From NCBI GenBank assembly GCA_015492245.1, contig WGFM01000032.1, positions 6,231 to 70,230 on the forward strand: a stretch of DNA of 64,000 bases, in the 5' to 3' direction. The notes beneath the pieces were generated by a model. That model saw nothing but the letters and a program-made list of their open reading frames with translations. It searched no databases and had not been told where the DNA came from. The stretch comes from Deltaproteobacteria bacterium. Its GTDB lineage: Bacteria; Desulfobacterota; GWC2-55-46; DRQE01. The position numbers and the translations under genes are program-made. The number at the start of each line of letters is the position of its first letter. Positions within the stretch are counted from its first letter, which is position 1. Shown here one piece after another: positions 17,214-35,473 of the stretch.

Positions 17214-17340
17214 GGTTAATTCCTCGTTACCATGAGATGATAAAACAATTGTCCCCCTCTGTCAAACATAAAAAAGCCGTCCCATCCTGCGGTTATTTGC
17301 CTGATGGAACGGCTGTATTCTTCGTCCCCGACAATGTGCC

Positions 17341-18498
17341 TTATCCCTTCATGGCCTTTATGAGCACCCCTGCAACCTCTGGCCTTGAGAACTCTGGCGG
17401 AGGTATCTCACCCTGTCTTAGCATCTCACGCACCTTTGTTCCAGAAAGGGTTATGTGGTCATGGGAGTCATGGGGGCAGGTCTTGTATGAAGCCATACCG
17501 CCACATCTTTTGCAGTAGAATGTGTAGTCGAAAAAGAGCGGAGTTATGCCTATCTTTTCGGGATCGAACTCGTCGAATATGTAGTGTGCATCGAATGTGC
17601 CGTAGTAGTTGCCCACACCTGCATGGTCTCTACCCACTATGAAGTGGGTGCACCCGTAGTTCTTGCGTATAAGGGCATGGAACACGGCCTCTCTGGGGCC
17701 TGCATACCTCATTGCCGCAGGAAACACAAGGAGCATCACCCTGTCCTTTGGATAGTAGTTCTCCATGAGGACCTCGTAGCAGCGCATCCTCACATCTGCA
17801 GGTATATCGTCTGCCTTGGTCTCACCCACAAGGGGGTGTATCATTAGTCCATCCACCACTTCGAGGGCACACTTCTGTATGTACTCGTGGGCACGGTGTA
17901 TGGGGTTACGGGTCTGAAAGCCCACCACCCTCTTCCATCCACGTTCCTGGAAGAGGGCCCTCGTCTGGGCAGGGTCAAGTCTGTATTGTTTGAAGTCCTC
18001 ATGTTCTGGCCTCTCTATGAGTGAGACCTTTCCACCAAGGAGCATATCTCCTGACTGGTAGAGTCTCTTTACCCCTGGGTGTGCCTCCTCCCTTGTGCCG
18101 TATACCTGGAGGGCCTCTTTATCCTTGTCGTGGGGGAATACCTCCTCTACCGCCATAAGGGCCAGTATGGTGCCATCTTCGCTGGTAAGGGCCACATCTT
18201 CGCCCTCTTTTATGGTGTCTGCGGTCTCTTTCGAGACCGCAAGGGTTACCGGAATGGTCCATGGCAGCCCACCTGCAAGGTGCATGGTGTCCATGGTGGA
18301 GTGGTAGTCCTCTTTTGTCATGAAGCCCTCGAGGGGGCTGTATGCACCTGTTGATATAAGCTCCAGATCAGATATTTCTTTTGGGCTGATGGCTATCTTC
18401 CTTAGCCCCTCTGCCCTCTTTCTCGCCTCCGTGAGCTCATCGCCTTTCAGCCTTCTGTCAACGAGCCTTCCCCCGTGGGGTGCAATGGTCTCTTTCAC
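17341..18498 (-). CDS. sat: Sulfate adenylyltransferase (ATP sulfurylase), homo-oligomeric type without APS-kinase domain
   Basis: 385 aa. [23 protein letters not shown] and PUA-like N-terminal domain are ATP-sulfurylase signatures. Confidence 0.9.
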
Positions 18499-18546: not shown

Positions 18547-19242
18547 TTACTGGTGCAGCCCGCACTCGGTCTTTTCTTTGCCAGCCCATCTGCCTGCCCT
18601 GGGGTCCTCGCCTGGATGGACGGGCCTTGTGCAGGGCTGGCAGCCTATGCTGGGATAGTTCTGGTCATGGAGCACATTGTATGGAACATCGTTATCCTTT
18701 ATGTAGTTCCATACATCGTCGTATGTCCATGCAACAAGCGGGTTTATCTTTACAAGGCCGAACCTGTTGTCCCATGTAACAACCGGGGCATTCGCCCTTG
18801 TTGGGGACTGCTCTCTCCTTATACCTGTTATCCATGCCTTGAGGTCCTTGAGGGCTGCCTCGAGGGGGCGCACCTTTCTTATCCTACAGCACTCATCAGG
18901 GTTTGTCTCCCAGAGCTTTGGGCCATACTTCTCTTCCATCTCCTCGAGGGTAATTTCTGCCTCGTACTTTTCGGGCTGTATGCCGTACTTCTCCTTCACC
19001 CTCTCTATCACATCGTAGGTCTCCTTGAAAAGCAGCCCTGTATCGAGGTAGAAGATCCTGGCATCCTTCCTTATCTTGACGAGCATATCCAGGAGCACCA
19101 CATCCTCTGCACCGAAGCTGCATGCAAGTGATATGTGGGGATGAAAGTTGTCAAGCGCCCACCCGATTACTTCCTGTGGGGATTTGCCCTCGAAGGAATC
19201 ACTTGTCTTTTTCAGTTCTTCTTCTGTCCACACTTTCTCCAT
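18547..19242 (-). CDS. cysH: Adenylylsulfate (APS) reductase, thioredoxin-dependent CysH family with Fe-S Cys cluster
   Basis: PAPS_reduct fold (SFGAEDVVLLDM). CC (ECCRIRK) plus C-terminal CQPCT pattern typical of APS- rather than PAPS-reductases. Catalytic ECGLH tail. Confidence 0.85.
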   Translation of the reverse strand: MEKVWTEEELKKTSDSFEGKSPQEVIGWALDNFHPHISLACSFGAEDVVLLDMLVKIRKDARIFYLDTGLLFKETYDVIERVKEKYGIQPEKYEAEITLEEMEEKYGPKLWETNPDECCRIRKVRPLEAALKDLKAWITGIRREQSPTRANAPVVTWDNRFGLVKINPLVAWTYDDVWNYIKDNDVPYNVLHDQNYPSIGCQPCTRPVHPGEDPRAGRWAGKEKTECGLHQ

Positions 19243-19248
19243 CTTCTC

Positions 19249-19722
19249 CTATACCTCCTCTTCGTCGAATATTTCCACCCTGCAGGATACCCGCTCCTTC
19301 AACTCATCCATCATCGAAGAAGAGAAGTATCTCCTCAGGGTGGTTGTCTTCTTCCTTATAGTTATTATAAGCTCTATGGAATATTTTTCTATTGTTTTTT
19401 TGATGATCTCGATAAAATCTCCCTCTTCCATCAGGGGTTCGAACTCCACGCCCTCTTCCATGGCCTTTATCTGCACCTTGCCGAGTTCTTCATAGCCCCG
19501 TTGTCTGGACTCCTTCATTATGGCCTCTGACAGCTGTGTAGAGGGCTTGTCCCCTATGAAGCCCACATCTGAGAACCGCTCGAGCGCCTCTTCTGCAACG
19601 GCCCTGTCGAGTATGTAGAGGGCGTAGAGCATGGCACCCTCTTTCTTTGCGGTCCTTACCGCATGTTCTATTGCCCTCTCGGATCTTCTCGAGCCCGGTA
19701 TAACGAGCACTATCCCCTTCAC
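19249..19722 (-). CDS. Universal stress protein (UspA family)
   Basis: GTG start at 19720-19722 preceded by GGAGGG RBS. USP alpha/beta signature IVLVIPGSRRSERAIEHAV...IELIITIRKK. Overlaps stop of the upstream transporter by 4 nt. The track's 283-aa ORF is an out-of-frame read-through. Confidence 0.65.
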   Translation of the reverse strand: MKGIVLVIPGSRRSERAIEHAVRTAKKEGAMLYALYILDRAVAEEALERFSDVGFIGDKPSTQLSEAIMKESRQRGYEELGKVQIKAMEEGVEFEPLMEEGDFIEIIKKTIEKYSIELIITIRKKTTTLRRYFSSSMMDELKERVSCRVEIFDEEEV

Positions 19723-21152
19723 CTCAACCCTCCGAGCCCTATGAGCGGCCAGTAGAACCTTGCCACGAGGTTGAAGACCACCCAAGAGGTTATGCTCATT
19801 ATGACACCTGCCTTTGCCATGTCCCTGATCGTAAGGTATGTGGAGGATACAGCTATGGCGTTTGCAGGTGTCGAAAGGGGCAGTGTGAAGGCAAGCCCTG
19901 CGGGCACCGCTATGGCATAGGTTACGAGCACAGGGTCTATGTTGACCCCTCCGGTAAGCCCTATTCCCACAGGCAGAAGTATGGCAATCACTGCGGCATT
20001 GCTTATCCCCTCTGTAAAGAGCAGTGCCAGAAGGCTCAGTACCGCCACTGCAAGCCATGGCTCCACCATCCATCCACCTATCGTGGACTGGGCTATCCAC
20101 ATGGCGGCCCCACTTCTTTCAAGGGCAGTGCCCATTATTATCGCCCCTCCGTACATGAGTATTATACCCCAGTTCACATACTCCTCTATGTCCTTCCAGC
20201 GCACAAGCCTCAACACGAAAAGGGCCACCACCGCTGCAAGGGACACCGTGGCAAGCCCAACCCTTGCGCCAAGGGTTGCCCATGCCACCACGGTAACCAC
20301 AAGGATTATGCCCACCATGTATTCATTGTAACCTATCTTTCCCATGGATTGTATACGCCTTTTGAGCACCTCGTGTGCCTTCTCCACACTGTCTATGTCC
20401 ATGGAGAACAACCTTGTAAGAAGAAAGTAACCAAACAGCAGCATTATCACCACAACGGGAAAGACCCCTACCGAGTAGCTTATGAAGTCTATGGTCCTGC
20501 CCGTGGTCTCCTTCAGTATGCCCAGGGCAAGGGGCACCCTTGCACCACCGAGGAATGTGGCGATCCCTCCTATGACGCAACCCCAGGCGAGCGAGAGAAA
20601 GAGCATCTTCGCATAGGTGGACCTACCTGGTCTCAGCCCAAGGCTCTTTGCGATCTCGAACACTATGGGAAATAGCATGGCAGCCACCGCATGTTCTGAC
20701 ATGAAGCAGGAAAGCAGCGCCGCCAGGAGGTATATGCTCAGAAGAAGCCTTGCCGGTGAACTACCGAATCTATCCATTATAACGAGGGCGATCCTGTTGG
20801 AAAGCCCTGAATGCATCACCGCACCTGCCAGTATGAAGGCACCAAGGATGAAGAATACCGCCTCGTTGCCGAAGAGCCCGTATACCTCTTCTTTTGGCAG
20901 TATGTCCACAAGCGGCACAAGTGCTATGGCAAAAAGGCTGGTTATGGCAAGGGGTATTATGTTGGACACCCACAGTATAAGACACAGGATGAACACCGCT
21001 ATGGCGTTCTTGCCCTCAGGGGTAAGCCCCTCGGGGGTGGGCATCTTTATGAGGTAATAGAACCCTGCCGCAAGGAGCACAAAGAAGGCAGGCCGAAGCC
21101 CCTTCAAGACAAGCAGCACCCATATGGACCTTCTGTCTATCTCTACAGCCAT
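19719..21152 (-). CDS. DASS/SLC13-family anion:sodium symporter (putative sulfate permease)
   Basis: 477 aa, about 12-14 TM helices, duplicated-repeat architecture with SNxA/TNxA-like hairpin tips (ISNAAVIAILLP). Genomic context with usp-cysH-sat. Confidence 0.7.
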   Translation of the reverse strand: MAVEIDRRSIWVLLVLKGLRPAFFVLLAAGFYYLIKMPTPEGLTPEGKNAIAVFILCLILWVSNIIPLAITSLFAIALVPLVDILPKEEVYGLFGNEAVFFILGAFILAGAVMHSGLSNRIALVIMDRFGSSPARLLLSIYLLAALLSCFMSEHAVAAMLFPIVFEIAKSLGLRPGRSTYAKMLFLSLAWGCVIGGIATFLGGARVPLALGILKETTGRTIDFISYSVGVFPVVVIMLLFGYFLLTRLFSMDIDSVEKAHEVLKRRIQSMGKIGYNEYMVGIILVVTVVAWATLGARVGLATVSLAAVVALFVLRLVRWKDIEEYVNWGIILMYGGAIIMGTALERSGAAMWIAQSTIGGWMVEPWLAVAVLSLLALLFTEGISNAAVIAILLPVGIGLTGGVNIDPVLVTYAIAVPAGLAFTLPLSTPANAIAVSSTYLTIRDMAKAGVIMSITSWVVFNLVARFYWPLIGLGGLR

Positions 21153-21208: not shown

Positions 21209-22402
21209 TCAATCCTCTTCTATCTCCTTTACCCTGAGCTTTCGCCTCAGGGTGGAGAGCCCCCAGGCGGTCTTGAGTCCCAGCCTTGTGCCATAGAACT
21301 TTTCGATTAGCCCGCTTATCCCACCAGTTTTCTCACCTGCAATGAGTCTACCCTCTATGGGTGTGGTTACAACACTTATATCCCTCATCCAGTTCATGTT
21401 TATCCCCTTCTTCTTTACCGCCCTGTAGAGGTGTCTGTATATGGGTATTATCACCTCTGCATTAAGGGGTTCTATCCTCAGGGCCCCACCAGGGCGTGGC
21501 CTGTATATGGGCAATATGGGCACCACGCCCATGTCTGTGAGAAAGTCTATGCCCATGCATGTGGAGCCAGGGGGTTCAAGCCCCACTATGAGGTGTGAGG
21601 CAACGGTGCCATTTGGAAATATGTCTGCCGCATATCTCAATGCCTCTATGTATCTTTTTCTGCCCACAAACCTTGCCCTGCCCGGGCAGAGTGCCTCGAA
21701 GAGCTCCTCGTCGAATATCTCGAGGTTGTAGAGCAGGGCATCTGCCCCAAGGGCATATGTCCTGTCTATCCAGTGATTGTTCTTCGGTGGAAGGGCTTCC
21801 ACTGCAACAAGGCAGTTGAACCTCTTCTTTATGGCCTCTATGTAGGGTGTGAGGAACCCTATGCCACCATCGTCGTCCTCGGTAAAGCCCGTGGAAAGGT
21901 ATATTATCTCTGACACTCCTTCCTCAAGCACTGCCGAGACGACCTCCACCACCTCGTCCACTGTATGGGTTCTGCCCGGTCTTTCATCGTATCCACCGGC
22001 ACAATAGCTGCACTCCACCTTCTTTTCGAAGAACACACACTCCTTCTTGGGTAGAATCAGCACATAGCTCCCGTGCACCGTGGCTATCTCGCTGTAGGGT
22101 GTGCCCTCTCCTGTCGTTCTCGAGAGAAACTCGGGCATTTTTACAGGCCTTACCTCCACCTCACCTGTGGTGTCTGATATGAGCCACCTTTCTCCCGCCT
22201 TCTTGAGAACATATGGAGAATCTCTGGTGAACTCCTCTCCGCAGGGCACATTCACAGGGGAACCCCCTGGAAGCACTATGTCCACTCCCTCACCTGCCCT
22301 GCCGTAGAAGGCAAGAGGGCCATCTTCCCGGGGAAGCCTTATCCCCCTGAGCATGAGGTCTATCTTCAATGTGCCGGGGTTGTTGAGGTAGCTCTTTTTC
22401 AT
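21209..22402 (-). CDS. Uncharacterised radical-SAM-like protein with non-canonical Cx8Cx2C motif and N-terminal about 110-aa extra domain
   Basis: 397 aa. KKECVFFEKKVECSYCAGGYDER cluster loop; GxIxGxxE-like IVGLEPPG; TIM-barrel-like periodicity. Its start abuts the stop of the E1 gene (22402/22403). Confidence 0.5.
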   Translation of the reverse strand: MKKSYLNNPGTLKIDLMLRGIRLPREDGPLAFYGRAGEGVDIVLPGGSPVNVPCGEEFTRDSPYVLKKAGERWLISDTTGEVEVRPVKMPEFLSRTTGEGTPYSEIATVHGSYVLILPKKECVFFEKKVECSYCAGGYDERPGRTHTVDEVVEVVSAVLEEGVSEIIYLSTGFTEDDDGGIGFLTPYIEAIKKRFNCLVAVEALPPKNNHWIDRTYALGADALLYNLEIFDEELFEALCPGRARFVGRKRYIEALRYAADIFPNGTVASHLIVGLEPPGSTCMGIDFLTDMGVVPILPIYRPRPGGALRIEPLNAEVIIPIYRHLYRAVKKKGINMNWMRDISVVTTPIEGRLIAGEKTGGISGLIEKFYGTRLGLKTAWGLSTLRRKLRVKEIEED

Positions 22403-23224
22403 CTAAGTTTCACAACTCGAGCGTTGCAGCTCGCAACTCTCCTCGTATGTTACAAGCTCTTTTATGGATGGCTCCTTGCCACAGAGCCTGCACCCGGGGT
22501 CTTTCCTTACCCTGACTTTTCTGAAGTCCATCCTCAATGCATCGAATATGAGGAGCCTTCCCGAAAGCCCCTCGCCTATCCTGAGTATCTCCTTTATGGT
22601 CTCAACAGCCTGCAACACCCCTATGACCCCTGCAAGGGCACCGAGTACGCCTGCCTCCTGGCAGCTTGGCACAAGCCCTGGTGGAGGGGGCTCTGGATAG
22701 AGACACCTGTAACATGGCGAGCCCTCATGGGGCTTGAAGACCGAAAGCTGCCCCTCGAAACGGAACATGCTGCCAGATACAAGAGGCCTATGCTCGAAAA
22801 AGGCCGCATCGTTTACGAGAAACCTTGTAGGGAAGTTGTCCGAGCCATCGAGCACAATATGGAACCCCCTTATGACCTCCCTTATGTTCTCCCTTGTGAG
22901 CCTCTCGTTGTAGGTTATAACCTCTACATCAGGGTTTAACTCCTCTATGGTCTTCTTTGCAGAGAGTGCCTTCGGGGTGCCAACCCTGGGGGTGGAGTGT
23001 ATTATCTGACGCTGAAGGTTGCTCAGATCCACCCTGTCTCCATCGGCGATCCCCACGGTGCCAACCCCTGCAGCTGCAAGATACATGAGCGCAGGCGAAC
23101 CAAGCCCACCTGCACCAACCACAAGGACCCTGGCATCGAGCAACTTTCGCTGCCCCCTGCCACCAACCTCTGGAAGTATGATGTGCCTGGAATACCGCTC
23201 TATCTGCTCCTCTGTAAAATCCAT
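22403..23224 (-). CDS. MoeZ/MoeB/ThiF-family E1-like sulfur-carrier-protein adenylyltransferase
   Basis: RYSRHIILPEVGGRGQRKL, nucleotide loop VVGAGGLGS, two CxxC pairs (CYRC...CRLC). Confidence 0.85.
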   Translation of the reverse strand: MDFTEEQIERYSRHIILPEVGGRGQRKLLDARVLVVGAGGLGSPALMYLAAAGVGTVGIADGDRVDLSNLQRQIIHSTPRVGTPKALSAKKTIEELNPDVEVITYNERLTRENIREVIRGFHIVLDGSDNFPTRFLVNDAAFFEHRPLVSGSMFRFEGQLSVFKPHEGSPCYRCLYPEPPPPGLVPSCQEAGVLGALAGVIGVLQAVETIKEILRIGEGLSGRLLIFDALRMDFRKVRVRKDPGCRLCGKEPSIKELVTYEESCELQRSSCET

Positions 23225-23297: not shown

Positions 23298-23702
23298 CTA
23301 TTTCTCGGCTATTTCTTCTTCTACAAACACATCGGCATCATCCAGCCTCCAGCACCTGACCTCAGTCTCTCTCCCGCCCCTTACTCCCACGATGAGGTAG
23401 AAGTATTCGGGCCATGCCCTGGTTCTGTCGAACTCAGATGGTTCTGCCGGGTGATCCGGGTGTGAGTGGTATATGCCGATTACCGCAAGCCCCCTTTTTG
23501 CTGCCTCTTTTTCCACCATGAGGAATTCCCGTGGGTCTATCTCGTAGCGGTCCTGCGCCCTTTCGGTGTTGATATTTTTAACCTTCACCGCCTCTAACAC
23601 CACCCCTTCCTTACCCAGAAGCAGTCCGCAGCATTCATTGGGGTAAGAGGCCCTTGCATTCTCACGCACCTTTTCTGCTGCATCCCTGACTATGCGAAGC
23701 AT
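23298..23702 (-). CDS. JAMM/MPN+ metalloprotease (Mec+/CysO-hydrolase-like)
   Basis: 134 aa with canonical JAMM motif E...HSHPDHPAEPSEFD (HxHx7Sx2D). Confidence 0.85.
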   Translation of the reverse strand: MLRIVRDAAEKVRENARASYPNECCGLLLGKEGVVLEAVKVKNINTERAQDRYEIDPREFLMVEKEAAKRGLAVIGIYHSHPDHPAEPSEFDRTRAWPEYFYLIVGVRGGRETEVRCWRLDDADVFVEEEIAEK

Positions 23703-23712
23703 CTTTCCGTAG

Positions 23713-24672
23713 TCAATCCTCCCACACCCTTGTGGAGAGGTACTTGTCTCCGCCGTCCGGGAACATGACGACTATGAGCCCCTCTTTGAGTGTCCTTGCA
23801 AGCCTCAATGCCCCGAGTAGAGCTGCCCCTGAGGACTGGCCTGCAAGTATGCCCTCTTCTTTTGCAAGCCTTCTTGTCATCTCGTAGGACTCTTCGGTGT
23901 CTGCCGGTATCTTATCGTCCAGTTCTTCCTCGTGGTATATGCCAGGCACGATGCTCGATGCCATGTGTTTAAGGCCCTCGAGCCCGTGAAGGGGGCTATC
24001 GGGCTCAACTGCTATGACCTTTATATCCTTTCTGAACTCCTTCAATCTTCTTCCAGTGCCCATTATGGTTCCCCCTGTGCCTATGCTTGCCACAAAGTGG
24101 GTTATTCTGCCCTCTGTCTGTGCGATTATCTCTGGCCCGGTGGTCTCGTAATGGGCAAGGGGGTTGGAGGGGTTGTTGTATTGATCAAGCTTGCAGTATT
24201 TCTCGGGGTTGTCCACATATAGCTTCCAGCAAAGCCTTATGGCCCCATCGGAGCCCTCCAAGGGGTCAGAGAATATCACCTTAGCCCCGTAGGCGCTGAG
24301 CATCTTCTTTCGCTCCTCACTCACATTGCCTGGCACCACAAGCTCCACCCTGTAGCCCTTGTGTGCGCCTATCCATGCATAGGCAATGCCTGTGTTGCCG
24401 GATGTTGAATCGAGTATTATCTTGTCCTTCGTAAGACGGCCTGCCTTCTCGGCGTCCTCTATCATCTTCAGTGCTGGCCTGTCCTTTACAGAACCCCCTG
24501 GATTGTAGCCCTCGAGCTTGGCATATATCTCCACCCCGGGAGGTATATCCCTGGTTACATTCCTTATATTGACGAGCGGGGTGTTGCCAACAAGGTCTAT
24601 AACAGAGCCCACCGCCTCCCTTACCCCTCCTGACCTTGTCCGGTAGTCCGCCCCTGCAACCCTTGTATCCAT
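23713..24672 (-). CDS. cysM: Cysteine synthase, CysM/CysK family (likely carrier-protein-thiocarboxylate-dependent)
   Basis: PLP-lysine motif GGSVKDR, GNTGIA, SIGTGGT. Start reassigned to the internal ATG at 24670-24672 (MDTRVAG...), 6 nt after RBS AGGGAGG. Confidence 0.85.
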   Translation of the reverse strand: MDTRVAGADYRTRSGGVREAVGSVIDLVGNTPLVNIRNVTRDIPPGVEIYAKLEGYNPGGSVKDRPALKMIEDAEKAGRLTKDKIILDSTSGNTGIAYAWIGAHKGYRVELVVPGNVSEERKKMLSAYGAKVIFSDPLEGSDGAIRLCWKLYVDNPEKYCKLDQYNNPSNPLAHYETTGPEIIAQTEGRITHFVASIGTGGTIMGTGRRLKEFRKDIKVIAVEPDSPLHGLEGLKHMASSIVPGIYHEEELDDKIPADTEESYEMTRRLAKEEGILAGQSSGAALLGALRLARTLKEGLIVVMFPDGGDKYLSTRVWED

Positions 24673-24722
24673 ACAAAAACCTCCCTGAAGTAAAGACAAA
24701 ATACCTTACTAACTTAGTCAAG

Positions 24723-24787: not shown

Positions 24788-25027
24788 TTACTCTATTATA
24801 TCGAGTTCTATGGGTTCCACCTTAACGCCTTTGTCGATGAAGAACTGTATTGCCCTGCCTATCTCCTCTTCGCTACCCTCGAGCTCAAGGGCCACAAGCC
24901 CCATGGTATCTGACACACATGCCTGCCGTATGTTGGTAACCACACGGAAGCGCTTGCCCGCCTCGTATATGAGGGGTTCCTTCACGAGCTCCCTCGGGTA
25001 TGTAAGGTAGACCCTTTTTTTCAACAC
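24788..25027 (-). CDS. Stand-alone NIL-domain protein (MetN C-terminal-like; sulfur-amino-acid-associated)
   Basis: 79 aa. PLIYEAGKRFRVVTNIRQACVSD.MGLVALELEGSEEEIGRAIQFFIDKGVKVEPIE matches the RF.V..NI..A...G.M.LEL.G....A...L...V.VE NIL pattern. Confidence 0.55.
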   Translation of the reverse strand: MLKKRVYLTYPRELVKEPLIYEAGKRFRVVTNIRQACVSDTMGLVALELEGSEEEIGRAIQFFIDKGVKVEPIELDIIE

Positions 25028-25302
25028 ATGCCTCCTGCTATTGCAGGAATTATGGAGAGCTCATCACCCTCTTTGAGCTCTGTATCCAGGTTGAGCTTGA
25101 ACCGTATGTCCTCATCGTTCACATAGAGGTTTACGAACTTTCTTATAGAGCCGTCTTCCTCGCAGATGCGCTCTTTTATACCTGGATACCTCTTTTCGAG
25201 GTCATCTATGACCTCTCTTACTGTTGTGCCCTCTGCAGTAACCTCGTCCTTGCCTTCTGTAAGTTTCCTCAGTGGTGTGGGTATCCTTACCTTTACAGCC
25301 AT
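25021..25302 (-). CDS. MoaD/ThiS/CysO-family sulfur carrier protein with C-terminal GG followed by 2-residue extension (..AIAGG-MC)
   Basis: 93-aa beta-grasp. C-terminal DELSIIPAIAGGMC resembles MoaD ...VAIIPPVSGG but with MC after the di-glycine. Confidence 0.75.
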   Translation of the reverse strand: MAVKVRIPTPLRKLTEGKDEVTAEGTTVREVIDDLEKRYPGIKERICEEDGSIRKFVNLYVNDEDIRFKLNLDTELKEGDELSIIPAIAGGMC

Positions 25303-25332: not shown

Positions 25333-25575
25333 TTATTCGCCTCTTTCTATAAGGAGCCTGAAGTGGTCGTCCTCTTTCTTCACATCTATTATCCTGTGTC
25401 CCTCTTCTTTTATGCTCTTTGGCACATTCTGGATGGGCTCTCCACTGTCGAGCACCACCTCGAGCACCTCGCCCTTCTCCATGCTCTCGAGCTTGAGCTT
25501 GGTCTTAACGAAGTTCATGGGGCAGAGCACCCCTCTCAGGTCAAGGGTATCTACCGGTCTTACTTCTGCTGACAT
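25333..25575 (-). CDS. tusA: TusA/SirA-like sulfurtransferase
   Basis: 80 aa with LDLRGVLCPMNFVKTK active-site Cys motif (CPxP variant). Confidence 0.7.
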   Translation of the reverse strand: MSAEVRPVDTLDLRGVLCPMNFVKTKLKLESMEKGEVLEVVLDSGEPIQNVPKSIKEEGHRIIDVKKEDDHFRLLIERGE

Positions 25576-26534
25576 GCTGCCTCCTTTGCTCCGAGCACCC
25601 TGTCGCCGAAGACATCTTTCATGAATTCAAGGTACTTATCGACCCCCACGCGTTCCAGGGTCTTTCCAATCCTCTCACCCCTCATGCCATTTGCCATATA
25701 CCACTCTATGGTCTTCTCGATTACCTCTGCCACCTTCTCGTCAGGCACAAAGAGTGCCACCTCTTCTGCCTCCATGGGCCATCTACCGTGCTTTCCACCA
25801 ACCCGTACGAGGTGTCCATAGCGCTTTGCCCTCCAGGCACCTGTTGGGCATGCACGGATGCAATCGCCACAGTAGATGCATTTTTCAGGATAGTAGATGG
25901 GTTTACCCGTATCGGGATCACTCTCTATGGCGTCCTCCTTACATGCCTCGGCACATATGGTGCAGCCCGTGCATGTGGGTTCCTCCCACTCGGGCTCCAC
26001 CACACCCTGAAAGCCCAGGTCCATCTCTCTGGTTCTTGCACAATCTATCGGGCAGCCAGAGAAGGATATTTTGAACTTGTGGTGTGTGGGTGTGCCGAAG
26101 AACCTTTCATCCACCATCTTTGCAAGGGCCTGGGTGTCGGTAAGCCCATTCGGGTTGTACTCACAGCCGCCACAGGCAGTGGGCACCCTCACCCTTGGCC
26201 CGCAGGAGGCAACCTTCCAGCCTATGGCCTCAAGCTCCTTCACAAGCTGGGGGAACTCCTTGTAGTCCACATAGAGTATCTCTATGGATTGGCGAAAGCT
26301 CAGGTGTATGACGCCCTTCTTGCTGTACTTGTGGGCTATCTTCGAGATTTCTATGAGCTTATCTGTTGGAACCCTTCCCCCAGGGCATCGAAGCCTCACG
26401 GTGAAAAGATCACGCTGGCGCTGTTTTATAAAGCCACCTGTCTTGAGCTCGCCAAAATCGAGTTTTTTTGTCTCTCCGTCGAGGCTTACCTCGACCCTTG
26501 TGGTCTTATCCTCAATGAAACGGTCCATGGACAC
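25560..26534 (-). CDS. Small sulfite/nitrite-reductase-family protein (siroheme/4Fe-4S-binding half-domain) with inserted 2x[4Fe-4S] ferredoxin domain; assimilatory-type low-MW sulfite reductase / AsrC-like
   Basis: NiR/SiR ferredoxin-like half domain. Siroheme-cluster cysteines SCGPRVRVPTACGGC...SGCPIDCA. Ferredoxin motifs CTGCTICAEAC and CIYCGDCIRACP. Confidence 0.7.
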   Translation of the reverse strand: MSMDRFIEDKTTRVEVSLDGETKKLDFGELKTGGFIKQRQRDLFTVRLRCPGGRVPTDKLIEISKIAHKYSKKGVIHLSFRQSIEILYVDYKEFPQLVKELEAIGWKVASCGPRVRVPTACGGCEYNPNGLTDTQALAKMVDERFFGTPTHHKFKISFSGCPIDCARTREMDLGFQGVVEPEWEEPTCTGCTICAEACKEDAIESDPDTGKPIYYPEKCIYCGDCIRACPTGAWRAKRYGHLVRVGGKHGRWPMEAEEVALFVPDEKVAEVIEKTIEWYMANGMRGERIGKTLERVGVDKYLEFMKDVFGDRVLGAKEAACQQK

Positions 26535-26599
26535 ATCTCTCCTTTCAAAAAGATGTAGACAACTATGATAACAAAAAACCCCCTGGGGGTAAAGGAGGA

Positions 26600-27853
26600 T
26601 TAGCCCTCCAGGGCATATTTTTCATCCATCTTCTTTACCAGCTCATCGAAGTCCTTGAGGCTTGCGTTTATGGTGGGCACCTCTTCGAGTCTTCCATGGA
26701 GTGCCTCCTGGGTCTTGAGCCCGTTGCCTGTTACGGAGACCACTATGGACTCGTCCCTGGGGATTCGGCCCTGTTCTATGAGCTTCTTTGTAACCCCCAG
26801 GGTAACCCCACCGGCTGTCTCTGCAAATATGCCCTCCCTTTCTGCCAGAAGCTTTATCGCCTCTACGATTTCCTCATCCGACACATCCTCTGCCCATCCG
26901 CCACTCTCTCTTATGGTCTTCGCAGAGTAGTAGCCATCGGCAGGGTTGCCTATCGCAAGGGATTTTGCAATGGTGTTGGGTCTTACAGGCTCTATGAGCT
27001 CTTTACCCCTCTTTACCGCTGTAACTATGGGTGCACAGCCCGTTGCCTGTGCCCCGTAGACCTTCGCATCCATGTTGTCCACAAGCCCGAGCATATGAAG
27101 CTCTCTGTATGCCTTCCACACCTTCGTTATGAGCGAGCCCCCTGCCATTGGCACAACCGTGTGTCTGGGCAGCCTCCAGCCCAGCTGTTCTGCAATCTCG
27201 AAGCCGAAGGTCTTCGAGCCCTCGGCATAATAGGGCCTTATGTTTATGTTCACGAATGCCCAGCCGTATTTGCCCGCAATCTCACTGCACAGGCGGTTTA
27301 CCTCATCGTATGTGCCCCTTATACCCACGACCCTTGCCCCGTATACGAGGGTTCCCACAATCTTCGTGGGCTCGAGATCGAAGGGTATGAACACATAGCT
27401 CTCCATACCACAGGCAGTGGCATTTGCAGCCACAGAGTTCGCAAGGTTGCCTGTGGACGCACAGGAGGCCACCTTGAAGCCCATCTCCAGTGCCCTGGAG
27501 ATGGCAACAGAGACCACCCTGTCCTTGAAAGAGAGGGTGGGATAGTTTACCGCATCGTTCTTTATGTAGAGCTCCTTTACACCCAGGGCCTTCTCAAGGT
27601 TTCTCGCCCTTATAAGGGGCGTAAAACCAACTTCTCTGCCCACCGTGGGCTCTCCATCTATGGGTAGAAGCTCCCTGTAGCGCCACATGTTCTGTGGCCT
27701 CTTCTCTATGGTCTCTTTCGACAGGCTCTTCTTGATTTTACCATACTCGTAGACCACCTCGAGGGGACCAAAGCAGTACTCGCACACATGCAAAGCCTTC
27801 CTGGGATACTCCCTGCCACACTCTCTGCATCTCAGTGCCTTCATAAAGCCCAT
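26600..27853 (-). CDS. thrC: Threonine-synthase-family PLP enzyme with N-terminal zinc ribbon; candidate phosphohomoserine sulfhydrylase given SAM-riboswitch control
   Basis: CRECG...CEYC ribbon and PLP-lysine motif TLSFKDR, ThrC fold. Directly downstream of a SAM-I riboswitch. Confidence 0.75.
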   Translation of the reverse strand: MGFMKALRCRECGREYPRKALHVCEYCFGPLEVVYEYGKIKKSLSKETIEKRPQNMWRYRELLPIDGEPTVGREVGFTPLIRARNLEKALGVKELYIKNDAVNYPTLSFKDRVVSVAISRALEMGFKVASCASTGNLANSVAANATACGMESYVFIPFDLEPTKIVGTLVYGARVVGIRGTYDEVNRLCSEIAGKYGWAFVNINIRPYYAEGSKTFGFEIAEQLGWRLPRHTVVPMAGGSLITKVWKAYRELHMLGLVDNMDAKVYGAQATGCAPIVTAVKRGKELIEPVRPNTIAKSLAIGNPADGYYSAKTIRESGGWAEDVSDEEIVEAIKLLAEREGIFAETAGGVTLGVTKKLIEQGRIPRDESIVVSVTGNGLKTQEALHGRLEEVPTINASLKDFDELVKKMDEKYALEG

Positions 27854-27879: not shown

Positions 27880-28078
27880 TAAAAAAAACCTCTTCCTTAC
27901 TTTTTCCCTTTGAAGTTAAGAAGAGGTCTTAACGACTCTTCTTATCTTCCAGGAGCCCTTTAACTGGAAGACTCCTGCTGGAATTAGCACCGGGCGTTTC
28001 ATCCCCCAAGGGGGATAAAACCGGTTGCTGTGGCTTCACGGGGCCAGTTCCCTCCACCACTCTGGATAAGAAGATTAT
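27880..28078 (-). promoter_or_regulatory. SAM-I (S-box) riboswitch: aptamer (about 27936-28076) plus intrinsic terminator (27881-27927)
   Basis: Minus strand reads UCUUAUCCAGAGUGGUGGAGGGAACUGGCCCCGUGAAGCCACAGCAACC...GGUGCUAAUUCCAGCAG...GGAAGAUAAGAAGAG, matching S-box conserved positions. Then hairpin GACCUCUUC...GAAGAGGU + UUUUUUUU, then RBS GGGAGGA and the thrC ATG. Confidence 0.85.
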
Positions 28079-28189
28079 CCCTGTTCAATTGTTAGAGAAT
28101 CTTATAATACACTATGGAAGGATTGTCAAGGAAAAATAAAGGGTTCAGGACAATCAAAGGTAGAACCTCCTCTGTGTAGCCACAAATTT

Positions 28190-29071
28190 CTAAGTGTTAT
28201 CGAGCAGGAACTCCTTGAACTTCCTTGTTGCAGGTGAAGGACTTCTCTTTGAATGTGTTATTATATGGAAGTATCGTTCTATGCCGACACCCTTTATCTT
28301 GACCTCCTTGAGCATCTTTCTTCTCACATGCTCACATATGGCAAGTCTGGACATGAAGGCAAGCCCGAGCCCGCTCTTTATTGCACCCACAAGGGCCTGT
28401 GTGGAGCCCATCTCTGCCACTATGTTGAGTCCTTCAGGCTCTATGCCTGCCTCTCTTATGGCCCTTTCTGTCTCCATCCTGGTTCCAGAGCCCCTTTCCC
28501 TTACCACAAGTGGTATATGGGAAAGCTCTTCCCTTGAGACCCTCGATTTCTTGAAGGAAGAAGGTGCTGCCAGCACTATCTCGTCGGATACAAACCTTTC
28601 CAGCAATAGATGTTTATCCTTCACCACCGAGCCCACCACCCCTATGTCCACCCTTCCCTCTGACACCATGTGGCTTACCTTTTCTGTATCCGCTATGGTT
28701 AGTGATGGAAAGACCCCCGGGTACAGTCTTCTGAACTCTGCTATCCTCTGTGGCAGTATGTACTCCCCTGGTATGGTGCTCGCCCCTATTGTGAGTGTAC
28801 CCTGCACCGAGCCGCCGAACTCTTTCAGGGACTGGCTTGCCTCCTCTTTGAGTCTTACAATCTCCTTGGCGTATCTGTAGAGTATGGCTCCCTCCTTGGT
28901 GGGCACCACCTTTCTGCCGAGTCTGTCCAGCAGTCTTGTGGTGAGGGTTTCCTCAAGGGTTCTTATGTGAATACTTATGGTGGGTTGGGTAAGATTCAGA
29001 GACTCTGCAGCCTGGGAAAATCCTCCTTCCTCAACAACTCTGCAGAATATCTCAAGAAGTCTCAACTCCAC
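28190..29071 (-). CDS. LysR-family transcriptional regulator
   Basis: N-terminal wHTH MELRLLEIFCRVVEEGGFSQAAESLNLTQPTISIHIRTLE, C-terminal LysR substrate-binding domain. Confidence 0.85.
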   Translation of the reverse strand: MELRLLEIFCRVVEEGGFSQAAESLNLTQPTISIHIRTLEETLTTRLLDRLGRKVVPTKEGAILYRYAKEIVRLKEEASQSLKEFGGSVQGTLTIGASTIPGEYILPQRIAEFRRLYPGVFPSLTIADTEKVSHMVSEGRVDIGVVGSVVKDKHLLLERFVSDEIVLAAPSSFKKSRVSREELSHIPLVVRERGSGTRMETERAIREAGIEPEGLNIVAEMGSTQALVGAIKSGLGLAFMSRLAICEHVRRKMLKEVKIKGVGIERYFHIITHSKRSPSPATRKFKEFLLDNT

Positions 29072-29472: not shown

Positions 29473-30741
29473 TCATCTGTAGGTTCCACAGAGTCTCTCC
29501 GTGTAGAAAGGAAAACCCTCGCACAGCCTTCTCACCTCTTCTTTTATACGGCAGAGAAGTTTCTCGTCGTCAGGGGCTTTTAGCACCCTGTCTATGAAGT
29601 CTGCTATTGTGCGCATCTCTCCCTCTTTCATGCCCCTCGTGGTAACTGCGGGAACCCCTATCCTTATCCCGCTTGTTACGAAGGGGCTTCTCGTCTCAAA
29701 AGGTATGGTGTTCTTGTTTACCGTTATGCCTGCCCTGTGGAGGGCCTCTTCGGCCTCCTTGCCGGTAAGGCCTGTCTTTGTAAGGTCCACGAGCATAAGA
29801 TGGGTATCTGTTCCACCTGATATTAGCTCGTAGCCACGGCTCAAGAGTTCTTCTGCAAGGGTCTTTGCATTCTTCAGTATCTGCTTCTGATACTCCTTGA
29901 ACCCAGGCTCAAGGGCCTCTTTCAGTGCCACGGCCTTTGCGGCTATTATGTGCATAAGGGGGCCACCCTGTATGCCAGGGAATATCTCCTTGTCCATGGC
30001 CTTTGCGAACTCCTCCCTGCACATAATCATGCCTGCCCTTGGGCCTCTGAGTGTCTTGTGTGTGGTGGTGGTTACAAACTCTGCATGGGGCACGGGGCTT
30101 GGATGAAGCCCTGCTGCCACAAGCCCTGCTATATGGGCTATGTCTACCATTATGTGGGCACCAACCTCGTCTGCGATCTGGCGGAATGCCTCAAAATCTA
30201 TAACCCTGGGATAGGCACTCGCACCAACCACTATGAGTTTTGGCCTGTGCTTTCCTGCGAGCTCACGAACCTGGTCCATATCTATACGGTGATCCTCCTT
30301 TCTTACGCCATAGAACAGGAAGTCGTAGAGCCTGCCAGAAAAGTTGACAGGGCTTCCATGGGTGAGATGCCCACCATGGGTAAGGTCCATGCCCAGCACC
30401 CTATCCCCCGGCTTCAGGGTGGCCATGTAGACCGCCATGTTCGCCTGGGAGCCGGAGTGGGGCTGCACATTCACATGCTCACAGCCGAACAGCTTCTTCG
30501 CCCTCTCTATGGCGAGCCTCTCGGCTATGTCCACAAACTCGCATCCACCGTAGTAGCGCCTGCCAGGATAACCCTCTGCATACTTGTTTGTGAGCACACT
30601 TCCCACGGCCTCGAGCACCCGCTCGCTTACAAGGTTTTCAGAGGCGATGAGTTCCAGCTTGTATTCCTGCCTCTCTGTCTCAAGCCTTATCGCCTCGTAT
30701 ATCTGTGGATCGAATTCTTTAAGCAGTGATTCTTTCCTCAT
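29473..30741 (-). CDS. glyA: Serine hydroxymethyltransferase
   Basis: 422 aa. SHMT signatures [29 protein letters not shown]-lysine region [15 protein letters not shown]. Confidence 0.95.
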
Positions 30742-31202
30742 ATCCTTTCACCCATTCTGTCTTCTATTTCTCTTATCTTGTCCAGGCGTCTTGAGTGTCT
30801 GCCGCCCTGGAAGGATGACTCGAGCCACACCCTCACCATCTCCCTTGCAAGCCCCTTTCCCACCACCCTTCCACCTATGACCAGTATGTTGGCATCGTTA
30901 TGTTCCTTTGCCATCCTTGCGGTGTAAGTGTCGTATACAAGGGCAGCCCTCACACCGCTGAACTTGTTTGCCACTATACTCATCCCTATACCTGTGCCAC
31001 ATATGAGTATGGCCTTCTGTATCTCCCCTTTCGACACCTTCTCTGCCACGGGTATGCCGTAGTCAGGGTAGTCCACCCTCTCGTCACTGTCTGTTCCCAT
31101 ATCCACTAGTTCGTAGCCTGATGAAATGAGAAACTCTTTGATGTCCTCTTTCAGCTCCCTGCCTGCGTGGTCACTGGCTATGGCGATACGGCGGTCTTCC
31201 AT
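30738..31202 (-). CDS. rpiB: Ribose-5-phosphate isomerase B
   Basis: Start at the internal ATG 31200-31202 ([14 protein letters not shown]), RBS GAGGAG upstream. RpiB/LacAB fold, [16 protein letters not shown]. Confidence 0.8.
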
Positions 31203-31206
31203 CCCC

Positions 31207-32445
31207 TTACTCCTCGAACCTTTTGAACACAAGCACCGCATTTGTTCCCCCGAAGCCGAAGGAGTTACTCATCGCAGCCCTCATATCCATCTTGCGTGCC
31301 TCGTTCGGCACATAGTCCAGATCACATCCCTCATCGGGTGTCTCGTAGTTTATGGTGGGGGGCAGAACCCCTTCTTTTATTGCAAGCACTGTGAAGACCG
31401 CCTCCACCCCGCCGGCAGCCCCCAGGAGGTGGCCTGTCATGCTCTTTGTAGAGCTTACGGCAAGCCTTTCTGCATGCTCACCGAAGACCCTCTTTATCGC
31501 CTCGGTCTCGTTGAGGTCGTTGTAGTATGTGGATGTCCCGTGTGCGTTTATGTAGTCTATATCCGCTGGGTCGAGCCCTGCATCATTCAGGGCCAGTTCC
31601 ATGCACCTTGCTGCACCCTCTCCTTCAGGGGCGGGTTGTGTTATGTGGTAGGCATCGGCATTCAGCCCATAGCCTGCAACCTCTGCGTATATCCTTGCCC
31701 CCCTTCTTCTGGCACTCTCAAGTTCTTCGAGCACCAGAACACCTGCACCCTCGCCCACAACGAAGCCGTCTCTTTCCTTCTCGAAGGGTCTGCTTGCCCG
31801 CTGTGGCTCTGAGTTTCTCTGCGAGAGGGCCTTCATTGCGTTGAACCCTGCTATGCACAGGGGCGTTATGGTGGACTCTGTGCCGCCTGCCACCATGCAG
31901 TCTGCCTCACCCTGCTGGATGAGTCTGAAGGCATCGCCTATGGAGTGGGCGCCTGTTGCGCATGCGGTAACGGCACAGCTGTTTGGCCCCTTCGCACCGA
32001 GCTTTATGGAGACCTGTCCAGAGGCAAGGTTTATTATGACCATGGGTATGAAGAAAGGAGTAATCCTCGTTGGTCCCTTTTCTTTGAGCACATCGTGCCA
32101 GTGTTCTATACCAGGAAGCCCCCCTATGCCTGCACCTATGTATACCCCAACACGCTCGGCATTCTCTTCTGTAATCCTGTAGCCACTGTCTTCTACCGCC
32201 TCGCAGGCTGCCACAAGGGCATACTGGATGAAAAGGTCCATCTTCTTGAGCTCTTTCTTCTCGATATATGATGAGGGCTCGAAGTCATCTACCTCGCCTG
32301 CGATACGCACAGGAAACCCGGTGGCATCGAACCTCGTTATGGTGTCTATACCACTTCTGCCGGCCACTATATTCTGCCAGGCCCTCTCTGTGCCAGTTCC
32401 CACTGGACTGACACAGCCCAGCCCTGTAACCACTACCCTTCTCAT
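31207..32445 (-). CDS. fabF: 3-oxoacyl-ACP synthase II
   Basis: 412 aa. Active-site Cys region [25 protein letters not shown] and GHLLGAAG His/His motifs. Confidence 0.95.
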
Positions 32446-32459
32446 AGGATGTATCCTTA

Positions 32460-32696
32460 TTACCTGGATGCCTTCTTCTCTATATAGTCGATCGCATCCT
32501 GCACGGTGCGAATCTTCTCGGCATCCTCATCTGGTATCTCTATGCCGAACTCCTCTTCAAATGCCATGACCATCTCCACCGTATCGAGGGAATCCGCCCC
32601 CAGATCATCCACGAAAGAGGCGTCTGACTTTACCTCCTCCTCGGAAACGCCGAGCTGGTCCACGATTATCTTTTTTACCCTTGCTTCTGTTGACAT
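32460..32696 (-). CDS. acpP: Acyl carrier protein
   Basis: Start at the internal ATG 32694-32696 (MSTEARVKK...), RBS AAGGAGGG upstream. Phosphopantetheine site [11 protein letters not shown]. Confidence 0.95.
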
Positions 32697-32784
32697 CTTC
32701 CCACCCTCCTTGAAGATTTTTGACAAACAATGCTGATTGTATATCACCTATGCCGGTTCATGTCAATTTTAAAGACCCTTCTCT

Positions 32785-33525
32785 TTACATGCTCATACCG
32801 CCGTTTATATTGAGCACCTCGCCTGTTATGTAACCTGCCCCATCCGAGGCAAGAAAGAGCACTCCTTCGGCCACATCCTCGGGGGTTCCGAGCCTTTGAA
32901 GTGGTATTCTTCCTCTAAGCTCCTCTCTGGCCTTCTCTGGCATGGCCTGTGTCATGGCGGTGTCTATGAAACCAGGGGCCACGGCATTGCAGGTGATACC
33001 CCTCGAGGCAAACTCCCTTGCAACGGTCTTTGTAAGGGCTATGAGGCCACCCTTGCTTGCGGCATAGTTTGCCTGCCCCGGGTTGCCTGTTATACCAACG
33101 ATGGAGGCTATGTTCACTATCCTTCCATAGCGAGCCCTTGCCATAACCCTGACAGATGACCTTATACAGTTGAACGCCCCCTTGAGGTTTACATCCAGTA
33201 CCCTCTGCCAGTCCTCGTCCGTCATGCGCAGCAGGAGTCTATCCCTTGTGATACCAGCGTTGTTCACCAGTATGTGGAGTGCGCCAAGGCTATCCACCGT
33301 CTCCTTTACCATACGGTCTGTATCCTCGGGGCTGGTTACATCCACCTTTACGAAGATGGCCTCACCCCCTGCCTCCCTTATCTCTCTGGCGGTCTTATTG
33401 CCCGCCTCTTCGTTAACATCTGCTATACTAACCCTTGCCCCCTCGGCCGAAAGCTTGAGGGATATGGCTCTGCCTATACCCTGGCTTCCTCCTGTAACTA
33501 TGGCCACACGGTCTTCAAGAAGCAT
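32785..33525 (-). CDS. fabG: 3-oxoacyl-ACP reductase
   Basis: 246 aa SDR: TGGSQGIG, NNAG, Y...K catalytic motif (YAASKGG). Confidence 0.92.
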   Translation of the reverse strand: MLLEDRVAIVTGGSQGIGRAISLKLSAEGARVSIADVNEEAGNKTAREIREAGGEAIFVKVDVTSPEDTDRMVKETVDSLGALHILVNNAGITRDRLLLRMTDEDWQRVLDVNLKGAFNCIRSSVRVMARARYGRIVNIASIVGITGNPGQANYAASKGGLIALTKTVAREFASRGITCNAVAPGFIDTAMTQAMPEKAREELRGRIPLQRLGTPEDVAEGVLFLASDGAGYITGEVLNINGGMSM

Positions 33526-34471: not shown

Positions 34472-34472
34472 C

Positions 34473-35450: not shown

Positions 35451-35473
35451 GCCTCCTTAAGTCCTTCTCTTTA

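Follow-up and report, generated by a model that had tools for sequence, protein, structure and literature searches.

A threonine synthase-like gene behind a SAM-I riboswitch in a Deltaproteobacteria bacterium: a candidate MetM-type homocysteine synthase

Introduction

Why does a gene that looks like a threonine synthase gene stand first behind an S-adenosylmethionine (SAM) riboswitch, at the head of a sulfur-assimilation cluster? The question is raised by a stretch of 64,000 nucleotides from a Deltaproteobacteria bacterium (assembly GCA_015492245.1, contig WGFM01000032.1, positions 6,231 to 70,230 of the forward strand), here called the window, in which the minus-strand gene at 26600..27853 encodes a 417-residue pyridoxal phosphate (PLP) enzyme of the threonine synthase (ThrC) fold. 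Judged from its sequence and genomic context, the gene probably encodes a MetM-type homocysteine synthase, a paralogue of ThrC that would replace the γ-phosphate of O-phosphohomoserine by the thiocarboxylate of a small carrier protein and would be repressed by SAM. A previous sequence-only reading of the window had favored homocysteine over threonine as the probable product, and this preference is supported by a clade separate from ThrC, replaced residues, synteny with a carrier gene, the riboswitch, and the coexistence of a canonical ThrC in other loci. The MetM/MetO kind of system has been known since 2024 and is already included in GapMind; the present gene is a further, systematically mislabelled member.

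The enzyme and its riboswitch

The enzyme gene and the signals around it are as follows.
26600..27853, minus strand: ThrC-fold PLP enzyme of a MetM-like clade, candidate O-phosphohomoserine-dependent homocysteine synthase (profile matches, motifs, tree, structure model)
27939..28072, minus strand: SAM-I riboswitch aptamer (Rfam RF00162, 83.8 bits, gathering score 44.4; match over the full model, 1-108)
27881..27930, minus strand: expression platform, an intrinsic terminator hairpin followed by U8 (sequence, folding)
28101..28129, minus strand: putative promoter, TTGACA, 17-nt spacer, TATAAG (read by eye)
26579..26598, minus strand: short GC hairpin and T6 directly after the enzyme stop codon, possibly a partial terminator (sequence; weak, 5-6 bp)

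The open reading frame (ORF) begins with ATG and is preceded by a ribosome-binding site, GGGAGGA. Its product matches Pfam PALP (3.6e-68) and passes the NCBIfam model TIGR00260 (thrC; 285.8 bits, cut-off 167.1). In the motif PTLSFKDRV, K110 is the lysine that binds PLP, and S108, K110, D111 and R112 are invariant in a 19-sequence alignment of the clade. The N-terminal CxxC...CxxC ribbon consists of C9, C12, C24 and C27; C9, C24 and C27 are invariant in the same alignment, and C12 is found in at least 90% of the sequences. The closest solved structures are those of ThrC from Aquifex, Thermus, Bacillus and Mycobacterium (E = 1.8e-58 to 2.3e-51, 36-38% identity), and an AlphaFold2 model of the enzyme (mean predicted local distance difference test score 90.8) aligns with solved ThrC structures at target-normalised template modelling (TM) scores of 0.85-0.87. 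A search of the PDB with this model found no MetM structure. The fold, PLP lysine and cysteine ribbon recognized in the sequence-only reading are thus borne out by PALP, TIGR00260, the motif alignment and the model.

In an Rfam scan of the whole window, the SAM-I aptamer at 27939..28072 (minus strand) was the only element found. The terminator hairpin lies between the aptamer and the start codon and has a folding energy of -17.9 kcal/mol, reached by none of 200 shuffled sequences, while an antiterminator would arise if its 5' arm paired with the 3' strand of P1 instead. This layout is that of the usual SAM-off transcription attenuator, and the placement of the gene as the first one behind a SAM riboswitch, already proposed from the sequence, is confirmed. 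The promoter-like site upstream is not listed by a consensus scan, since the scan demands T at the last position of the -10 element. Control by the riboswitch likely extends to the distal genes of the cluster. A weak promoter-like site (26593..26565) follows the post-stop hairpin, and together they may give the first gene an expression level different from that of the rest of the cluster. A LysR regulator is encoded directly upstream of the riboswitch (28190-29071, minus strand; NCBIfam "selenium metabolism-associated LysR", 304 bits against a cut-off of 250), and it is not at the corresponding position in L001 or L003, two of the loci introduced below.

For comparison, one genome per GTDB species was scanned, yielding at least 599 relatives of the enzyme. 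The best 80 of these, 56-79% identical to the query, were examined together with their neighborhoods; L-numbers (L001 etc.) denote homologous loci in other genomes. The 80 span more than 12 phyla and include Thermodesulfobacteriota, Verrucomicrobiota, Planctomycetota, Nitrospirota, Nitrospinota, Acidobacteriota, Chloroflexota, Cyanobacteria, Aquificaceae, Actinomycetota, Omnitrophota and Poribacteria, among others. Homologous SAM-I aptamers are present in L001, L003 and L005. A SAM-I covariance model, built from four Rfam-confirmed aptamers and applied to the 80 loci, detected a riboswitch on the same strand in 39 of them, in 38 of which it ends 62-252 nt upstream of the orthologue. Loci with SAM-I directly upstream are found in Verrucomicrobiota, Planctomycetota, Acidobacteriota, Chloroflexota, Thermodesulfobacteriota and others. 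When 11 of the SAM-I-negative loci were rescanned with Rfam, no missed SAM-I was found, suggesting that the negatives are mostly real. This rescan also gave one SAM-II (SAM_alpha) element (37.5 bits, gathering score 36) in an acidobacterial locus, at L068 4737-4810 on the plus strand. It lies some 1.2 kb ahead of the MetM-like gene, in place of a SAM-I, and would mean that the pathway is served by a second class of riboswitch.

Separation from canonical threonine synthase

An exhaustive profile search collected 13,841 homologues, from which full-length representatives were aligned with five solved ThrC sequences. In a neighbor-joining tree of 98 sequences with 100 bootstrap replicates, the 417-residue enzyme falls inside a 61-member clade with 94% support, and the query groups with the actinomycete and cyanobacterial members, to the exclusion of any canonical ThrC, in 100 of the 100 replicates. 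The sequence-only reading had left the relation to orthologous ThrC to phylogeny, which thus places the enzyme apart, with ThrC-invariant residues replaced.

In the alignment numbered after the Thermus enzyme, canonical ThrC is marked by PTGSFKDRG, STGNT, VNSVNPxRxEGQKT and PVGNAGNIT, exact in the bacterial enzymes; the Arabidopsis enzyme, 28% identical to the query, deviates at some other positions. Wherever identity to the query exceeds about 40%, the corresponding motifs are PT[LHF]SFKDRV, STGNL, VN[VI]N[LIV]RP[YF]YAEG[SA]KT and P[MIV][AG][SG]G. The clade thereby has the replacements G58L/H, G64V, T88L, N157R, R160Y, Q164S, N188G/S and N191L, besides a one-residue insertion after N154. The canonical residues at these positions are invariant in ThrC of Aquifex, Thermus, Bacillus and Mycobacterium, and all but G64 are kept in that of Arabidopsis. 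The clade pattern holds among the 80 orthologues: 79 have L88, 78 have the R-x-[YFW]-Y motif, and 78 have S or A at position 164. At Thermus T88, S155, R160, Q164, N188 and N191, the query and 78-79 of the 80 have L, an inserted V/I-N, Y, S/A, G/S and L, respectively. In Thermus ThrC, T88, N154, S155, R160 and N188 reportedly hold the phosphate of the substrate, and the retained phosphate ion is said to steer the addition of water to Cβ.

The 417-residue enzyme thus has much in common with canonical ThrC of Thermus, Aquifex, Bacillus and Mycobacterium: the fold (TM 0.85-0.87 at 36-38% identity), the PLP-lysine motif, the S84-T85-G86-N87 block and probably the substrate O-phosphohomoserine. It differs in the extra N-terminal four-cysteine ribbon and in the replacement of the otherwise invariant T88, N157, R160, Q164 and N188 (T88L, N157R, R160Y, Q164S and N188G/S), and its gene is under the control of SAM rather than of threonine-responsive elements.

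Could the gene nevertheless encode a genuine threonine synthase that happens to sit in a sulfur-assimilation operon? The TIGR00260 score cited above, the threonine synthase activity reported for a cyanobacterial member of the clade, and the names of the homologues, every database entry for which reads threonine synthase where a name is given, would agree with this. However, the name is a default. Canonical ThrC and clade members from four phyla pass the TIGR00260 cut-off alike, and because even the actinomycete and cyanobacterial members do so, the model does not separate the two clades. No MetM model is present in NCBIfam release 20, and both circumstances together account for the databases saying threonine synthase. 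NF006050 (PRK08197) was considered as the clade's own model and discarded: the query, at 302.7, falls just short of its cut-off of 303, and members of the clade in other phyla reach no more than 262-295. A threonine synthase is furthermore at odds with a SAM riboswitch conserved across phyla, with the separate clade and its replaced residues, and with the presence of canonical ThrC in the same loci or genomes. In three Nitrospirota loci, canonical ThrC is encoded directly after a trio of enzyme, carrier and NIL-domain genes (L026 2138-3265, L027 7853-8944, L043 1959-3098); it is 61-66% identical to Thermus ThrC and retains all canonical residues. The MetM-like enzyme and ThrC are therefore paralogues coexisting in one genome, and the two presumed users of O-phosphohomoserine are encoded side by side. 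A true threonine synthase is, on balance, very improbable.

The sulfur carrier and the downstream cluster

Behind the MetM-like gene, 12 genes follow on the same strand, from sulfite reductase through Sat.
25560..26534, minus strand: small sulfite reductase with NIR_SIR and two [4Fe-4S] ferredoxin domains (PF01077, PF03460, Fer4)
25333..25575, minus strand: TusA-family sulfurtransferase (PF01206 at 2.1e-23)
25021..25302, minus strand: ThiS/MoaD-fold sulfur carrier of the CysO/MetO type, C-terminus ...AGG-MC (PF02597 at 3.4e-20)
24788..25027, minus strand: stand-alone NIL-domain protein (PF09383 at 1.1e-12)
23713..24699, minus strand: CysM-type cysteine synthase, start codon uncertain (TIGR01138 cysM, 381 bits against a cut-off of 394; cysKM, 357 bits, above cut-off)
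23298..23702, minus strand: JAMM/Prok-JAB metalloprotease, Mec/HcyD-like (PF14464 at 8.7e-29)
22403..23224, minus strand: MoeB/ThiF-type E1 adenylyltransferase without a rhodanese domain (PF00899 at 2.3e-81; 273 residues, ThiF the sole domain found)
21209..22402, minus strand: variant radical-SAM protein (NF045502, 172 bits against a cut-off of 125)
19719..21152, minus strand: DASS / Na+:sulfate symporter (TIGR00785, 250 bits; PF00939 at 3.8e-63)
19249..19773, minus strand: universal stress protein (Usp) family (PF00582 at 1.1e-10; same position in L001 and L003)
18547..19242, minus strand: CysH, adenosine phosphosulfate/phosphoadenosine phosphosulfate reductase (NF002537, 298.8 bits)
17341..18498, minus strand: Sat, sulfate adenylyltransferase, the last gene of the cluster (NF003166, 590 bits)
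17265..17237: strong promoter-like site for the next gene after Sat (consensus scan)

The operon with a MoaD-like carrier, an E1 and a JAMM protease described in the sequence-only reading is confirmed by Pfam and NCBIfam, which found ThiS/MoaD, ThiF-type E1 and Prok-JAB proteins; sulfite reductase, TusA, NIL, CysM, the radical-SAM protein, the sulfate symporter, Usp, CysH and Sat had not been mentioned there. Judging from its gene families, the cluster covers the uptake of sulfate and its reduction to sulfide, and it provides a protein-thiocarboxylate system as well as two PLP enzymes. The gene order and the riboswitch are identical in two relatives with enzymes 78% identical to the query, L001 (chromosome CP129479.1) and L003. 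The sulfite reductase scores 137 bits with TIGR02912 (sulfite_red_C), below the cut-off, and the carrier matches CysO of Mycobacterium tuberculosis (3dwg_C) at 3e-22. PDB matches of the CysM-like protein include CysM of both Escherichia coli and M. tuberculosis; they do not settle whether it has the O-phosphoserine specificity of the M. tuberculosis enzyme, and E. coli CysM scores higher. The best NCBIfam match of the TusA gene is YedF, also selenium-associated, below cut-off. The radical-SAM protein is encoded between the E1 and the sulfate symporter, a position kept in L001, L003, L006 and L007.

In the comparative set, neighbors were counted by searching six-frame ORFs with the proteins of the window. 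Of the 80 loci, 70 have a ThiS-like gene on the same strand no more than 1.5 kb downstream, 34 a NIL gene, 29 an E1 gene, 23 a CysM gene and 17 a JAMM gene, and minimal loci with the riboswitch, the MetM-like gene and ThiS alone exist. These counts define the enzyme and the carrier as the conserved core. The window itself has a variant order, with the sulfite reductase and TusA genes inserted between the enzyme and carrier genes. Among the 70 neighboring carriers in L006-L085, 44 end exactly at Gly-Gly and 16 have 1-6 extra, varied residues; the remaining 10 have no terminal Gly-Gly and are mostly fusions of carrier and NIL domain with an internal Gly-Gly. As the C-termini differ, the need for proteolytic maturation of the carrier differs between lineages.

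These data also bear on the nucleophile. The enzyme might be an O-phosphohomoserine sulfhydrylase that uses free sulfide, with carrier, E1 and JAMM protease serving CysM only. In the window, sulfite reductase adjoins the enzyme gene and the carrier adjoins NIL and CysM; the carrier is close in sequence to CysO, which serves CysM in M. tuberculosis; and an adjacent carrier gene is absent in Actinoplanes and in 10 of the 80 loci. Against such a division of labor, the carrier gene is directly downstream in 70 of the 80 genomes, often without CysM in the locus, and the Streptomyces enzyme is described as dependent on MetO thiocarboxylate (GapMind 2026). Use of free sulfide is thus unlikely, if the least unlikely of the alternatives considered here.

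Relation to known carrier-dependent pathways

The MetM/MetO pathway of Streptomyces albulus was described in 2024 (Hasebe et al. 2024, Appl Environ Microbiol 90:e01247-24). MetO is the carrier, Mec the MetO-maturing protease and MoeZ the E1, while MetM is the homocysteine synthase, which takes O-phosphohomoserine as substrate, depends on MetO thiocarboxylate and often carries the wrong annotation threonine synthase (GapMind 2026). The identity of MetM with Bacillus subtilis ThrC is 33% (2026 preprint). In the Microcystis study, a SAM riboswitch is placed upstream of S. albulus metM; a Microcystis "ThrC" whose gene adjoins a MetO-like gene is 51.6% identical to MetM (Microcystis study).

The window resembles this system in the pairing of a ThrC-homologous PLP enzyme with a ThiS-like carrier, in the upstream SAM riboswitch and, as proposed here, in the requirement for a JAMM (Mec) protease for maturation or release of the carrier and for an E1. 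It differs in that sulfite reductase and TusA genes part the enzyme and carrier genes, that the cluster adds CysM, NIL, a radical-SAM protein and a full sulfate-reduction set, that the E1 lacks the rhodanese domain of MoeZ, and that the carrier ends in GG-Met-Cys.

An actinomycete member served as a proxy for S. albulus MetM. The chromosome of Nonomuraea gerenzanensis (NZ_LT559118.1, L086; 11.85 Mb), filed as "plasmid" in a plasmid collection and almost unannotated, has a SAM-I riboswitch (66.7 bits), a ThrC-like gene and then a ThiS gene. Its ThrC-like protein is 53% identical to the query and bears the clade signature, and its ThiS protein, 91 residues long and ending in AGG, is 56% identical to the carrier of the window. 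The same chromosome encodes, 9 Mb away, a canonical ThrC that shares 64% identity with that of M. tuberculosis. By sequence, this locus reproduces the riboswitch-metM-metO layout reported for Streptomyces. In Actinoplanes, a SAM-I riboswitch precedes the enzyme gene. No Streptomyces member of the clade came from the tblastn search of the plasmid collection that gave Nonomuraea, and a homologue search seeded with a Micromonosporaceae member returned Micromonosporaceae matches only.

Two other pathways employ a protein thiocarboxylate. CysO, CysM and Mec+ of M. tuberculosis have counterparts in the window, where the carrier matches CysO and a CysM-type enzyme and a JAMM protein are also encoded; they combine a phosphorylated amino-acid substrate with a protein thiocarboxylate, the same logic as proposed for the window. 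However, that system makes cysteine with an enzyme of the CysK/CysM fold, whereas the enzyme discussed here has the ThrC fold and its expected substrate has four carbons. The HcyS/HcyF/HcyD/MetY/Sir pathway of Wolinella succinogenes makes homocysteine from a carrier thiocarboxylate, as proposed for the window; there, a C-terminal extension of the carrier is reportedly removed by a JAMM protease and the clustered sulfite reductase is said to supply sulfide. It relies on a MetY-type (fold type I) O-acetylhomoserine sulfhydrylase, whereas the cluster of the window has no MetY and has a ThrC-fold (fold type II) enzyme in its place.

Proposed mechanism

Taking the features above together, we infer the substrate, nucleophile and product of the enzyme and the roles of the protease, E1, TusA and NIL protein as follows. 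Sulfate would be taken up by the DASS symporter and converted to sulfide by Sat, CysH and sulfite reductase. The JAMM protease would remove the two extra residues (Met-Cys) of the carrier, after which E1 would adenylate the Gly-Gly end, and the acyl-adenylate would be turned into a thiocarboxylate by sulfide or by a TusA persulfide. The PLP enzyme would bind O-phosphohomoserine and eliminate its γ-phosphate; in place of the addition of water at Cβ, the step of ThrC, it would accept the thiocarboxylate of the carrier (25021-25302) at Cγ. Homocysteine would then be freed from the carrier-homocysteine adduct by the JAMM protease. Cysteine is probably made by CysM with the same carrier. At high levels of SAM, the terminator would form and shut off transcription into the enzyme gene, and probably into the genes behind it.

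The same fold might also serve a different replacement reaction, with O-phosphoserine as substrate in the manner of cysteate synthase, or with another sulfur amino acid or a cystathionine-type compound as product. ThrC paralogues have been recruited for cysteate synthesis, and sulfite is an intermediate of the cluster. SAM riboswitches also control some cysteine or sulfur-assimilation operons, as in the S-box regulon of Bacillus. Cysteate synthase itself was rejected, as the enzyme scores only 63.3 bits with TIGR03844 (cysteate_syn; cut-off 324.9). The operon already has CysM for the synthesis of cysteine, and the minimal riboswitch-enzyme-ThiS loci fit one dedicated step of the methionine branch. 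A reaction of this sort is consequently quite improbable, slightly less so than threonine synthesis.

Several points weigh against the homocysteine synthase favored here. Orthology to S. albulus MetM rests on the actinomycete proxy and on published identities. The argument from the replaced ThrC residues rests on their conservation pattern and not on their reported roles in phosphate binding. A cyanobacterial member of the clade reportedly showed threonine synthase and threonine deaminase activity in vitro and did not raise methionine in vivo (Microcystis study), and in view of this in vitro activity some clade members may keep a ThrC-like chemistry. Two genes stand between the enzyme and carrier genes of the window, and CysM, a known user of such carriers, is in the same cluster; an adjacent carrier gene is lacking in 10 of the 80 loci and in Actinoplanes. 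Riboswitch control of the downstream genes is uncertain because the small hairpin with its T-run follows the enzyme gene. Within the 64 kb of the window, no canonical thrC, homoserine kinase, other homocysteine route or second ThrC homologue was found.

The NIL-domain partner of the carrier

The NIL gene overlaps the carrier gene of the window by 7 nt. In 34 of the 80 loci, the carrier gene is followed by NIL as a gene of its own, and in eight further loci carrier and NIL domain are joined in a single ORF.
L006 7158-7787: carrier-NIL fusion ORF
L007 3206-3853: carrier-NIL fusion ORF
L008 3008-3532: carrier-NIL fusion ORF
L009 7279-7800: carrier-NIL fusion ORF
L033 7276-7788: carrier-NIL fusion ORF
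L034 6324-6848: carrier-NIL fusion ORF
L041 6331-6903: carrier-NIL fusion ORF
L048 3032-3472: carrier-NIL fusion ORF

The fused proteins run from ...IIPAIAGG through a linker to VYLTYP..., so that the Gly-Gly is internal, which implies that the fused carrier is processed by the JAMM protease like a ubiquitin-like precursor. The fusion, of the Rosetta-stone kind, is a concrete candidate substrate for ubiquitin-like processing in bacteria. What appears new against the known MetM/MetO system is this NIL-domain partner, which in some lineages is fused to the carrier.

What the NIL domain does may be approached from two sides. The NIL protein weakly matches the methionine-binding C-terminal domain of MetN (3dhx), and a NIL-ferredoxin protein is required in the unrelated DUF39 route to homocysteine of methanogens and Desulfovibrio. 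In the literature searched, no paper linking NIL to metM/metO was found. A tentative proposal, for which the odds are somewhat less than even, is that NIL is a third component of MetM/MetO-type homocysteine synthesis, possibly a module shared with the DUF39 route, and that one carrier feeds both the MetM-like enzyme and CysM. Since the DUF39 route also requires NIL-ferredoxin, NIL could be a module of two pathways, either a general homocysteine- or methionine-binding module or a carrier-docking one. In the window, a single carrier would then feed the MetM-like and CysM enzymes under one SAM riboswitch.

Distribution and annotation

As the database entries of this protein and its hundreds of relatives all carry the name threonine synthase and no NCBIfam model separates the two clades, metabolic reconstructions will miss the homocysteine step and may overcount threonine synthases. 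The groups affected include Thermodesulfobacteriota, Nitrospirota, Verrucomicrobiota, Planctomycetota, cyanobacteria and others. A simple diagnostic against ThrC is provided by PT[LHF]SFKDRV, STGNL and N-x-N-x-R-P-[YF]-Y-x-EG-[SA]-K. Judged by how broad the clade is, the route from O-phosphohomoserine and a thiocarboxylate appears to be a major bacterial pathway to methionine and not a curiosity of Streptomyces.

A clade member 58% identical to the query is found in a metagenome-assembled genome of Aquificaceae (L063 145-1374), with no carrier gene detected in the available flank. Aquifex is among the organisms without a known homocysteine pathway (Price et al. 2018), and a family member of the L063 type may fill this gap.

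Upstream of the MetM-like gene and its regulatory region, the minus-strand genes at 29473-36505, read by eye from their translations, appear to be housekeeping-like and seemingly unrelated to it; they encode serine hydroxymethyltransferase, ribose-5-phosphate isomerase B and a fabF-acpP-fabG-fabD-fabH-plsX fatty-acid cluster.

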